Below are positions 23,864-24,754 of a stretch of 64,000 nucleotides of DNA, piece by piece. The first letter of the stretch is position 1. Every line of letters begins with the position of its first letter. The DNA is taken from assembly GCA_019358935.1 (NCBI GenBank), contig JAHHIK010000001.1, forward strand, positions 64,001 to 128,000, in the 5' to 3' direction. Below the pieces are notes generated by a model, which saw only the letters and a list, made by a program, of their open reading frames with translations, searched no databases and was not told where the DNA came from. The DNA comes from Tolypothrix carrinoi HA7290-LM1. Its GTDB lineage: Bacteria > Cyanobacteriota > Cyanobacteriia > Cyanobacteriales > Nostocaceae. The position numbers and the translations under genes were made by a program.

Positions 23864-24754
23864 TTAGCTCCAGTAGTAAATAGCATCATGCTCTTTGGAG
23901 AAAGACAAAAATCCACCTATAGTGATCCTGGTGCGATCGCCAACTGTCGGAGCGATACAGTGGTAAAATCGACCACCATCAAACAGCATCATATCTCCAA
24001 CACCTGGCTTAAAGGTCATGCTTCCGTACTGCTCATCAAATCGTGGATGCGATCTTTGATATAGCCGAGAGCCATAGCCACTGTCAGAGTTTGTGTCATC
24101 AAAGTTTAAAGGCTCTCCGTCCCACTCTAAGCCATAGATGACCAGTTCACCGCCAGCTTCAGGGAGAACTAGAGGAATGAAATAACTCAGTTGGTCAGTT
24201 ATATCAACTAAGCTTCTCAAATGGTCACTTTGAGGACTGTTCAAGAAGTCGTTCCCAACGTGGATGGGAAACTCATGATCTCTGGGCACCTTGCGGATGG
24301 TAGCTGGAATGTAAGTCTGCCCTTGTTGAGGTCCGGTAGGAATTTGCACTTTTTTTCCGCCAGAAAGAAAGCCCAACACTGACTCCATTCGCTCCTCTAA
24401 GTCAAGTGTTCCTTCAAACAAAGTGTGACACTTCTGCCGGAACACTGCTGCATAATTGAAGTACTGCTCCAAGCTGGGATCGCAGAAGACGATGTTTTCA
24501 CCCAAAGTATAGGCTCCTTTAACCGCCTCGGCAAACTTAGAGTCTAAAATCGCACTCATGCCTCCATCATTCTCCTCTAGGCGAGAGACGACCTGCTCGA
24601 CCACATCTTTAGGCAACACCTCGCGGATAATCATACCCTCGAAGCTACGGTTGTACAACATATCTTGAAGGGCAGTGGGATGTTTCTCTATTTCCGATAC
24701 ATGAATATCAAGAAAGTTAAACAGAGGTTCTTTGGCAATGACTGTTTTAGGCAT
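23864..24754 (-). CDS. WelO5/AmbO5-family carrier-independent Fe(II)/2-oxoglutarate halogenase homolog
   Basis: Blocks recalled from WelO5 occur along the whole length: FLDI, NRSFEGMIIR, NDGGM, IPTGP.GQTY.PATIR, HVGNDFL (HxG), DQLSYFIPL..PEAGGEL, GDMMLFDGGRFYH, TIGGFL.FSK, IYYWS C-terminus. Confidence 0.85.
   Translation of the reverse strand: MPKTVIAKEPLFNFLDIHVSEIEKHPTALQDMLYNRSFEGMIIREVLPKDVVEQVVSRLEENDGGMSAILDSKFAEAVKGAYTLGENIVFCDPSLEQYFNYAAVFRQKCHTLFEGTLDLEERMESVLGFLSGGKKVQIPTGPQQGQTYIPATIRKVPRDHEFPIHVGNDFLNSPQSDHLRSLVDITDQLSYFIPLVLPEAGGELVIYGLEWDGEPLNFDDTNSDSGYGSRLYQRSHPRFDEQYGSMTFKPGVGDMMLFDGGRFYHCIAPTVGDRTRITIGGFLSFSKEHDAIYYWS

Follow-up and report, generated by a model that had tools for sequence, protein, structure and literature searches.

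To our knowledge, all characterised WelO5-type enzymes act on hapalindole-type alkaloids, and they are prized for halogenating the unactivated carbons of free molecules. Chlorine is also found in a group of cyanobacterial glycolipopeptides, the balticidins A–D of Anabaena cylindrica Bio33, which belong to the hassallidin family, contain beta-hydroxy-Tyr and either carry chlorine on their dihydroxy fatty acid (A and B) or lack it (C and D) (PMC10300848, PMC4413203 and PMC5706043, in the parts available). In cyanobacteria, the known way of chlorinating fatty-acyl chains is by CylC-type enzymes, and HctB has been described as a fatty-acid halogenase (both in the accessible portion of PMC8406957). 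We have analyzed a stretch of 64,000 nucleotides (referred to here as the window) from Tolypothrix carrinoi HA7290-LM1, positions 64,001 to 128,000 of contig JAHHIK010000001.1 in assembly GCA_019358935.1 (genome G000 in our set, 99.65% complete, 184 contigs), where a WelO5-family gene is found within a lipopeptide gene cluster:

23864..24754, minus strand: homologue of the WelO5-family Fe(II)/2-oxoglutarate halogenases; intact open reading frame (ORF) of 296 amino acids with H165-V-G167, S190, H265 and R276

The best explanation of this gene, to which we give a probability of roughly 0.65, is that its product is a WelO5-family Fe(II)/2-oxoglutarate halogenase which stands free and acts independently of carrier proteins. 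It would be dedicated, as an optional tailoring enzyme, to a glycolipopeptide pathway of the hassallidin/balticidin type, with the fatty-acyl tail as its predicted target. In this predicted role the enzyme is likely the source of the chlorine in balticidins. An earlier note on this DNA had proposed a possible chlorinated hassallidin. The type of cluster has proved to be that of hassallidins and balticidins, while the chlorinated product class is not new, since balticidins A and B are already known; what appears new is the pairing of enzyme and substrate. We found no publication linking a halogenase to hassallidins or balticidins, although most subscription papers fell outside our coverage and such a link may exist in print.

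The ORF starts with ATG and its end coordinate in the ORF listing takes in the stop codon. Its translation holds the motifs PIHVGNDF (H165, G167), DQLSYF (S190) and GGRFYHC (H265), as well as the segment LEWDGEPLNFDDTNSDSGYGSRLYQRSHPRFDEQYGS after LEW. The Pfam WelO5 profile (PF22814, curated cut-off 27 bits) matched residues 14–296 over its positions 1–277 of 277 (E-value 3.5e-108, 361.8 bits), the only other Pfam match being a sub-threshold one to 2OG-FeII_Oxy_5, and the search of the protein against NCBIfam gave no meaningful match. All six distinct matches of the PDB sequence search (6/6) were WelO5 or WelO5*/Wi-WelO15 chains (E-values 4e-89 to 5e-86), with about 49–50% identity to the solved WelO5 chains, and in the printed alignments HVGNDF, DQLSYFIPL and GGR(F/Y)YH are in register with solved WelO5. 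We take the WelO5 counterparts to be H164, G166, S189 and H259, S189 being presumably the functional second-sphere Ser that corresponds to S190 here. Alignment to WelO5 gives an iron site made of His-x-Gly plus a distal His, with the carboxylate ligand absent. Over 47 aligned family sequences H165, S190, H265 and R276 are invariant (47/47), and at least 90% of the sequences have G167. The AlphaFold model built with this 47-sequence alignment as input had a mean predicted local distance difference test (pLDDT) of 90.6 and a predicted template modelling score (pTM) of 0.90, residues 211–230 being the sole stretch of low confidence. When the model was compared by Foldseek, the best 17 among the matches listed were all WelO5/WelO15 chains, at template modelling (TM) scores of 0.81–0.92, and the next ones were below 0.5. 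The protein is a single domain without a carrier domain, and the genome holds a single copy of the family. The 296-residue Fe/2-oxoglutarate enzyme of the earlier note, with HVG, the His of GGRFYH and the Ser of DQLSYF, is thus what ORF, translation, profile and alignment all give, and the comparison with WelO5 that the note had proposed agrees in residues and fold alike. As judged from sequence and model, the ORF encodes a WelO5-family protein with an intact halogenase-type active site, for which catalysis is predicted.

Within the family the protein does not group with the alkaloid enzymes. The database search returned 51 relatives, 13 of them at 71–98% identity, one at 61% and the others at 54% or less; those named hapalindole-type chlorinases or coming from Hapalosiphon/Fischerella were 43–49% identical. 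Several of the database records already call these proteins 'WelO5 family protein'. In the maximum-likelihood tree the sequences P0001–P0015, including the halogenase, form one clade (support 100/99, stem length 0.43), the sister of which is an 18-row clade that holds the Hapalosiphon welwitschii and Fischerella ambigua sequences. By this phylogeny the halogenase clade is separate from the hapalindole enzymes, and the separation is well supported. Twenty-six positions are fixed in the halogenase clade and different in its sister, and they cluster at residues 2–11, 71–97, 208–244 and 266–270. The third of these intervals is the lid, which carries an insertion relative to WelO5, placed before the helix 232–243. 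The protein had been described in the earlier note as collinear with WelO5 except after LEW: this segment is indeed the most divergent part, bearing the insertion and the low-confidence residues 211–230, but clade-specific residues are found also at 71–97 and 266–270. The ratio of nonsynonymous to synonymous substitution rates (dN/dS) was 0.06–0.22 against all eight orthologues (8/8), and the nine sequences compared were all open and with HVG (9/9), a pattern by which the gene is under purifying selection.

The position of the gene is the second line of evidence. Its neighbours, among them two nonribosomal peptide synthetase (NRPS) genes, with condensation (C), adenylation (A), thiolation (T) and thioesterase (TE) domains, are the following:

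25439..32071, plus strand: starter NRPS, 2210 amino acids, C(starter)-A-T-C-A-T, divergent from the halogenase
24755..25438, no strand: intergenic region between the divergent halogenase and starter NRPS genes, 684 bp, which would be their shared promoter region
22820..23641, minus strand: ORF of 273 amino acids, no Pfam family, glycosyltransferase-like leads only
14294..22783, minus strand: terminal NRPS, 2829 amino acids, C-A(N-methyltransferase)-T-C-A-T-TE, same strand as the halogenase, fits NMeThr-Gln (NMeThr, N-methyl-threonine)

The halogenase heads a minus-strand run in which a 222-bp gap, the 273-residue ORF, a gap of 36 bp and the terminal NRPS follow one another. The gene had been placed by the earlier note between hasV and hasY and co-oriented with hasY; in the ORF listing the starter NRPS is divergent from it and the terminal NRPS is on the same strand beyond one small ORF.

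We scanned loci, one genome per species, and obtained 22 with a WelO5-family member. Eight of them belong to the halogenase clade (75–82% identity), and come from Calothrix brevissima NIES-22, Nostoc foliaceum FACHB-393, three Nostoc records, one metagenome-assembled genome (MAG), the record '[Scytonema hofmanni] UTEX 2349 Tol9009DRAFT' (L006, an intact copy, 81% identical) and Anabaena cylindrica UHCC 0172 (L007), in which the orthologue (76% identical) is inside a hassallidin-type cluster. A starter-NRPS orthologue (68–74% identity, near full length) is divergent from the halogenase in 7/8 clade loci and a terminal-NRPS orthologue (73–79%) then follows in 6/8; the eighth locus, without a starter-NRPS neighbour, is a contig of 9.3 kb. 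At the loci L012–L023 neither NRPS was found as a neighbour (0/12). The MAG Cyanobacteria bacterium J06635_10 has an intact clade member on one contig (L008) and, on another (L024), a second copy, split over three reading frames, with terminal-NRPS-like, transporter and glycosyltransferase genes next to it.

Across the taxonomic family we surveyed 389 genomes, requiring at least 55% identity for the starter C domain and at least 76% for a full-length orthologue of the halogenase. The starter NRPS was present in 26 and the full-length halogenase in 10, with nine genomes having both. In these nine (9/9) the two genes are divergent and separated by 590–1959 bp, so that the look at other has clusters suggested by the earlier note finds the gene always beside the starter NRPS when both are present. 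The tenth halogenase-bearing genome (G715) is an 88%-complete assembly in 1410 contigs. An intact gene is therefore found in 9/26 cluster-bearing genomes, and two more have remnants at the expected place: in G620 residues 1–62 and 258–288 only, with a stop codon, and in G583 residues 1–32, a piece that may be cut by a contig end. In 14 of the 17 cluster-bearing genomes without an intact gene the halogenase query gave no match; among these 17, the contig of G504 begins 416 bp before the NRPS and presence there is not judgeable. Truncated sequences occur also in databases: the 90%-identity protein cluster includes forms of 123 amino acids named from Dolichospermum strains, 98% identical to the A. 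cylindrica protein, which begin just after HVGN and are without the first His. Of two metagenome scans, the first retrieved no relative and the second 15 loci, none with this short form. Because of the pattern of presence, absence and remnants over the 26 cluster-bearing genomes, the gene is, as far as genome comparison goes, an optional and repeatedly lost accessory of hassallidin-type clusters.

The assignment of the cluster itself comes from its NRPS logic. Together with the two NRPSs above, a 3067-residue and a 3700-residue NRPS, the latter (the fourth) located upstream of the window and the former extending there, make up four NRPSs with nine PP-binding (T) domains, all of these inside the NRPS ORFs. 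The nine modules have the has-type layout: they include a starter C domain, the penultimate (eighth) one contains an N-methyltransferase, and a TE closes the last. The A4-motif residues could be read in eight of the nine A domains, and were D-F-W in five, D-A-W in two and D-A-S in one; we take these to specify Thr, Gln and Tyr, respectively. Both A domains of the starter NRPS carry the motif FDFSVWE, presumably of Thr type. With these assumed codes and the epimerase-type motifs, the module order fits FA-Thr-Thr / D-Thr-D-Tyr / Dhb-D-Gln-Gly / NMeThr-Gln (FA, fatty acid; Dhb, dehydroaminobutyric acid), the core of hassallidins and balticidins. Over nearly their full length, the starter NRPS and the terminal NRPS both have 73% identity to their counterparts in the Tol9009DRAFT record. 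The accessible part of PMC4413203 cites Tolypothrix sp. PCC 9009 as a hassallidin producer and names the four A-domain-bearing has genes N, O, V and Y. The remaining genes assigned to the cluster are these:

2..6604, minus strand: 5' part of the 3067-residue NRPS, continuing upstream of the window; two modules, each then an epimerase-type domain
6639..7211, minus strand: oxygenase of the Asp/Asn beta-hydroxylase family, 190 amino acids, core gene of hassallidin-type clusters
7531..8295, plus strand: short-chain dehydrogenase/reductase (domain match)
8448-9326, minus strand: DUF4231 / SLATT-like two-transmembrane protein, between the dehydrogenase and acyltransferase genes
10339..10959, minus strand: hexapeptide-repeat acyltransferase (domain match)
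11297..12931, minus strand: PMT_2-type glycosyltransferase (domain match)
13053..14141, minus strand: methyltransferase (domain match)
32560..33381, plus strand: DXD-motif glycosyltransferase, PF04488 (domain match)
L003:4168-5022, minus strand: Cupin_8/JmjC-like oxygenase, with homologues 44–55% identical in 3/8 clade loci

Three glycosyltransferases of the cluster could be typed by Pfam (EryCIII-like, PMT_2 and DXD type), and there are in addition one gene of a glycoside hydrolase family, two methyltransferases, an enzyme of the NAD-dependent sugar epimerase/dehydratase family and transporters. Either the Asp/Asn beta-hydroxylase-like or the Cupin_8 enzyme could make the 2-hydroxy acid or beta-hydroxy-Tyr. 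The former (6639-7211) was tried as a marker of beta-hydroxy-Tyr and balticidins and was ruled out by its spread over 22/26 cluster-bearing genomes, including a match in 13 of the 17 where the halogenase gene is not intact. The element in which the cluster lies (see below) has no stand-alone carrier protein and no dedicated acyl-AMP ligase, its AMP-binding domains being found only inside the NRPSs. An upstream gene of 678 amino acids (L026:933-2969), considered as a candidate acyl-AMP ligase, turned out to be an alpha-amylase-family protein.

By the mechanism that we propose, the halogenase would bind Fe, 2-oxoglutarate, O2 and Cl-, with the chloride taking the room that Gly167 leaves. The resulting Cl-Fe(IV)=O intermediate would remove a hydrogen from an unactivated sp3 carbon in the acyl tail, and the chlorine would rebound to that carbon. 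The enzyme would thus act on the long dihydroxy fatty-acyl tail and produce balticidin A/B-like congeners beside non-chlorinated ones, and incomplete conversion would account for the chlorinated/non-chlorinated pairs. The substrate might be met as free fatty acid, as acyl thioester or as finished lipopeptide. We lean slightly towards a carrier-free substrate, because no acyl-AMP ligase or stand-alone carrier is found in the cluster and free substrates are what known members of the family use.

Several facts weigh against fatty-acyl chlorination by this enzyme. The Tol9009DRAFT record has its intact copy, yet the available text of PMC4413203 on the hassallidins from Tolypothrix sp. PCC 9009 makes no mention of chlorine, and that of PMC10300848 states that hassallidins proper lack it. 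Because of this disagreement between intact copy and reported compounds, the halogenase may be silent, minor or differently employed in the Tol9009DRAFT strain. The link from gene to compound comes from UHCC 0172, which is a different strain of the species named for the balticidin producer Bio33. Finally, the exchange of one residue can turn hydroxylation into halogenation or the reverse (PMC8406957, accessible portion), and halogenation requires the Gly at the carboxylate position without being guaranteed by it.

These last points feed the alternative that survives best, which we nevertheless regard as unlikely: despite its HxG the enzyme would hydroxylate, desaturate or be inactive in vivo, and the chlorine of balticidins would come from another enzyme. 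The hassallidins of PCC 9009 without reported chlorine (PMC4413203 and PMC10300848, in part) would fit it, as would the small changes that switch the outcome between halogenase and hydroxylase (PMC8406957, likewise in part). On the other side, G167 and S190 are conserved, the low dN/dS and the HVG in 9/9 argue for a maintained active site, and no other halogenase-like domain was detected among the scanned ORFs of at least 100 amino acids in the element. The particular role of a core hydroxylase is excluded, because the 2,3-dihydroxy acid is shared across the compound family while the intact gene is present in only 9/26 clusters.

A smaller chance goes to a true halogenase of the same pathway acting at another site of the glycolipopeptide, for example one of its sugars or the side chain of an amino acid. 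Linkage to the cluster is silent on which atom is attacked, and a glycosyltransferase gene directly adjoins the halogenase in six relatives; against it, the fatty acid is the only place where chlorine is reported for this compound family in the available parts of PMC10300848, PMC4413203 and PMC5706043. The weakest alternative, that the position is coincidental and the enzyme serves an unrelated pathway such as that of a hapalindole-type alkaloid, takes its appeal from the substrates of the characterised WelO5-family members (PMC8406957, in part) and is already largely refuted, and very improbable, given the same position in 9/9 genomes, the remnants there in two more, the separate clade and the absence of its marker genes from the genome.

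As to these markers, the earlier note had seen no indole-alkaloid genes in the window and had considered a hapalindole/ambiguine cluster elsewhere as a source of the real substrate. Neither the isonitrile synthase (PF05141) nor the ABBA prenyltransferase (PF11468) was found in the whole genome, or in G497 and G407, while in the positive controls G688 and G687 both were found, 22–31 kb from WelO5 homologues (50–51% identical). An enzyme of an alkaloid pathway encoded elsewhere in the genome is thereby rejected as a candidate identity and, on this genomic evidence, the halogenase is not a hapalindole-pathway enzyme.

The surroundings of the gene show some further peculiarities. Promoter-like sites in the intergenic scan were not above those of shuffled sequences (11 versus 8.8 expected), and no terminator-like site was found within 22700-25500. 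The 273-residue ORF fills the slot held in relatives by a family-2 glycosyltransferase; in six of them a gene of this kind, of 311 amino acids, adjoins the halogenase gene instead. The ORF had no homologue in any of 21 related loci, and its neighbours in the protein atlas were unnamed clusters with weak glycosyltransferase-like leads only. When window positions 22925-25208 were compared with the closest relative (L048, G500:C6), the flanking DNA was 92–95% identical, the halogenase region (23858-25208) only 80%, and the region of the 273-residue ORF had no counterpart. The region of the halogenase and this ORF looks like a swapped cassette in such an alignment.

The lipopeptide cluster fills an element of ~61.1 kb that splits nifK, from ~38249 of G000:C1 (L002:14248) to ~35322 of the window, where its right end is marked by two features:

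33723..35276, minus strand: large serine recombinase, at the right end of the cluster-bearing element
35324..35578, plus strand: 3' part of the split nifK, beginning LLFTEPVD, which marks the right border of the element

The N part of the split nifK ends GKDLWHMRS, the two ends of the element have short inverted sequences (CTATCAGGT / ACCTGATAG), and nifE, nifN, nifX, hesA and hesB follow the 3' part. G500, of the same genus, shares this layout, and its recombinase is 98.6% identical. The cluster of G497 and L009–L011 is contiguous and without the recombinase, and the layout of the window is a circular permutation of that arrangement. Elements in nifK that have xisF-like recombinases have been described (PMC4874684), in a paper that nowhere uses the words nonribosomal, NRPS, synthetase or secondary metabolite.

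By the comparative data, the gene is real, intact, selected and part of a new cluster-specific clade, and a role as balticidin-type chlorinase is plausible for it. If this role is true, a gap in balticidin biosynthesis, the origin of the chlorine, would be closed, and a natural lineage for a long aliphatic lipopeptide chain would give late-stage C-H functionalisation a wider choice of substrates. Whether the gene is present, absent or left as a remnant serves as a simple genomic marker for the hassallidin-type producers expected to make halogenated congeners, and strains with an intact, remnant or absent gene are ready natural controls. A bolder proposal, which we put forward tentatively as possible though doubtful, would make this the first lineage of the WelO5 family whose natural substrate is not an indole alkaloid. 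The enzyme would perform a carrier-free, regioselective chlorination of an unactivated methylene at a distant point of the fatty tail, in the free, finished glycolipopeptide or in the free dihydroxy fatty acid, and the whole antifungal pathway, with the halogenase, would lie on a developmentally excised nifK element and be deleted when heterocysts differentiate.

Compared with WelO5, AmbO5 and Wi-WelO15 (PDB 5iqs, 5iqt, 6gem, 8acv), the halogenase shares the Pfam family, the fold, the free-standing single domain and 49–50% identity, but belongs to a separate clade with 26 specific positions and a lid insertion, and is located in an NRPS glycolipopeptide cluster of a genome without indole-isonitrile genes. 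With the has cluster of balticidins and hassallidins there is agreement in the nonapeptide NRPS logic, the N-methyltransferase of module eight and the presence of glycosyl- and acyltransferases, whereas the cluster described here is on a nifK element. In the reference has cluster HasH is the acyl carrier protein. Its acyl-AMP ligase, HasG (PMC4219810, available part), has no equivalent here. SyrB2, BarB, CurA-Hal and HctB have the same HxG/A iron site and the chemistry predicted here, but need a carrier-tethered substrate, unlike the present enzyme with its lack of a fused or stand-alone carrier. The CylC-type dimetal-carboxylate halogenases resemble it in the expected placing of chlorine on an unactivated fatty-acyl carbon, and differ in having an unrelated fold and cofactor and, in the characterised clusters, in acting probably on carrier-bound acyl chains (PMC8406957, accessible portion).

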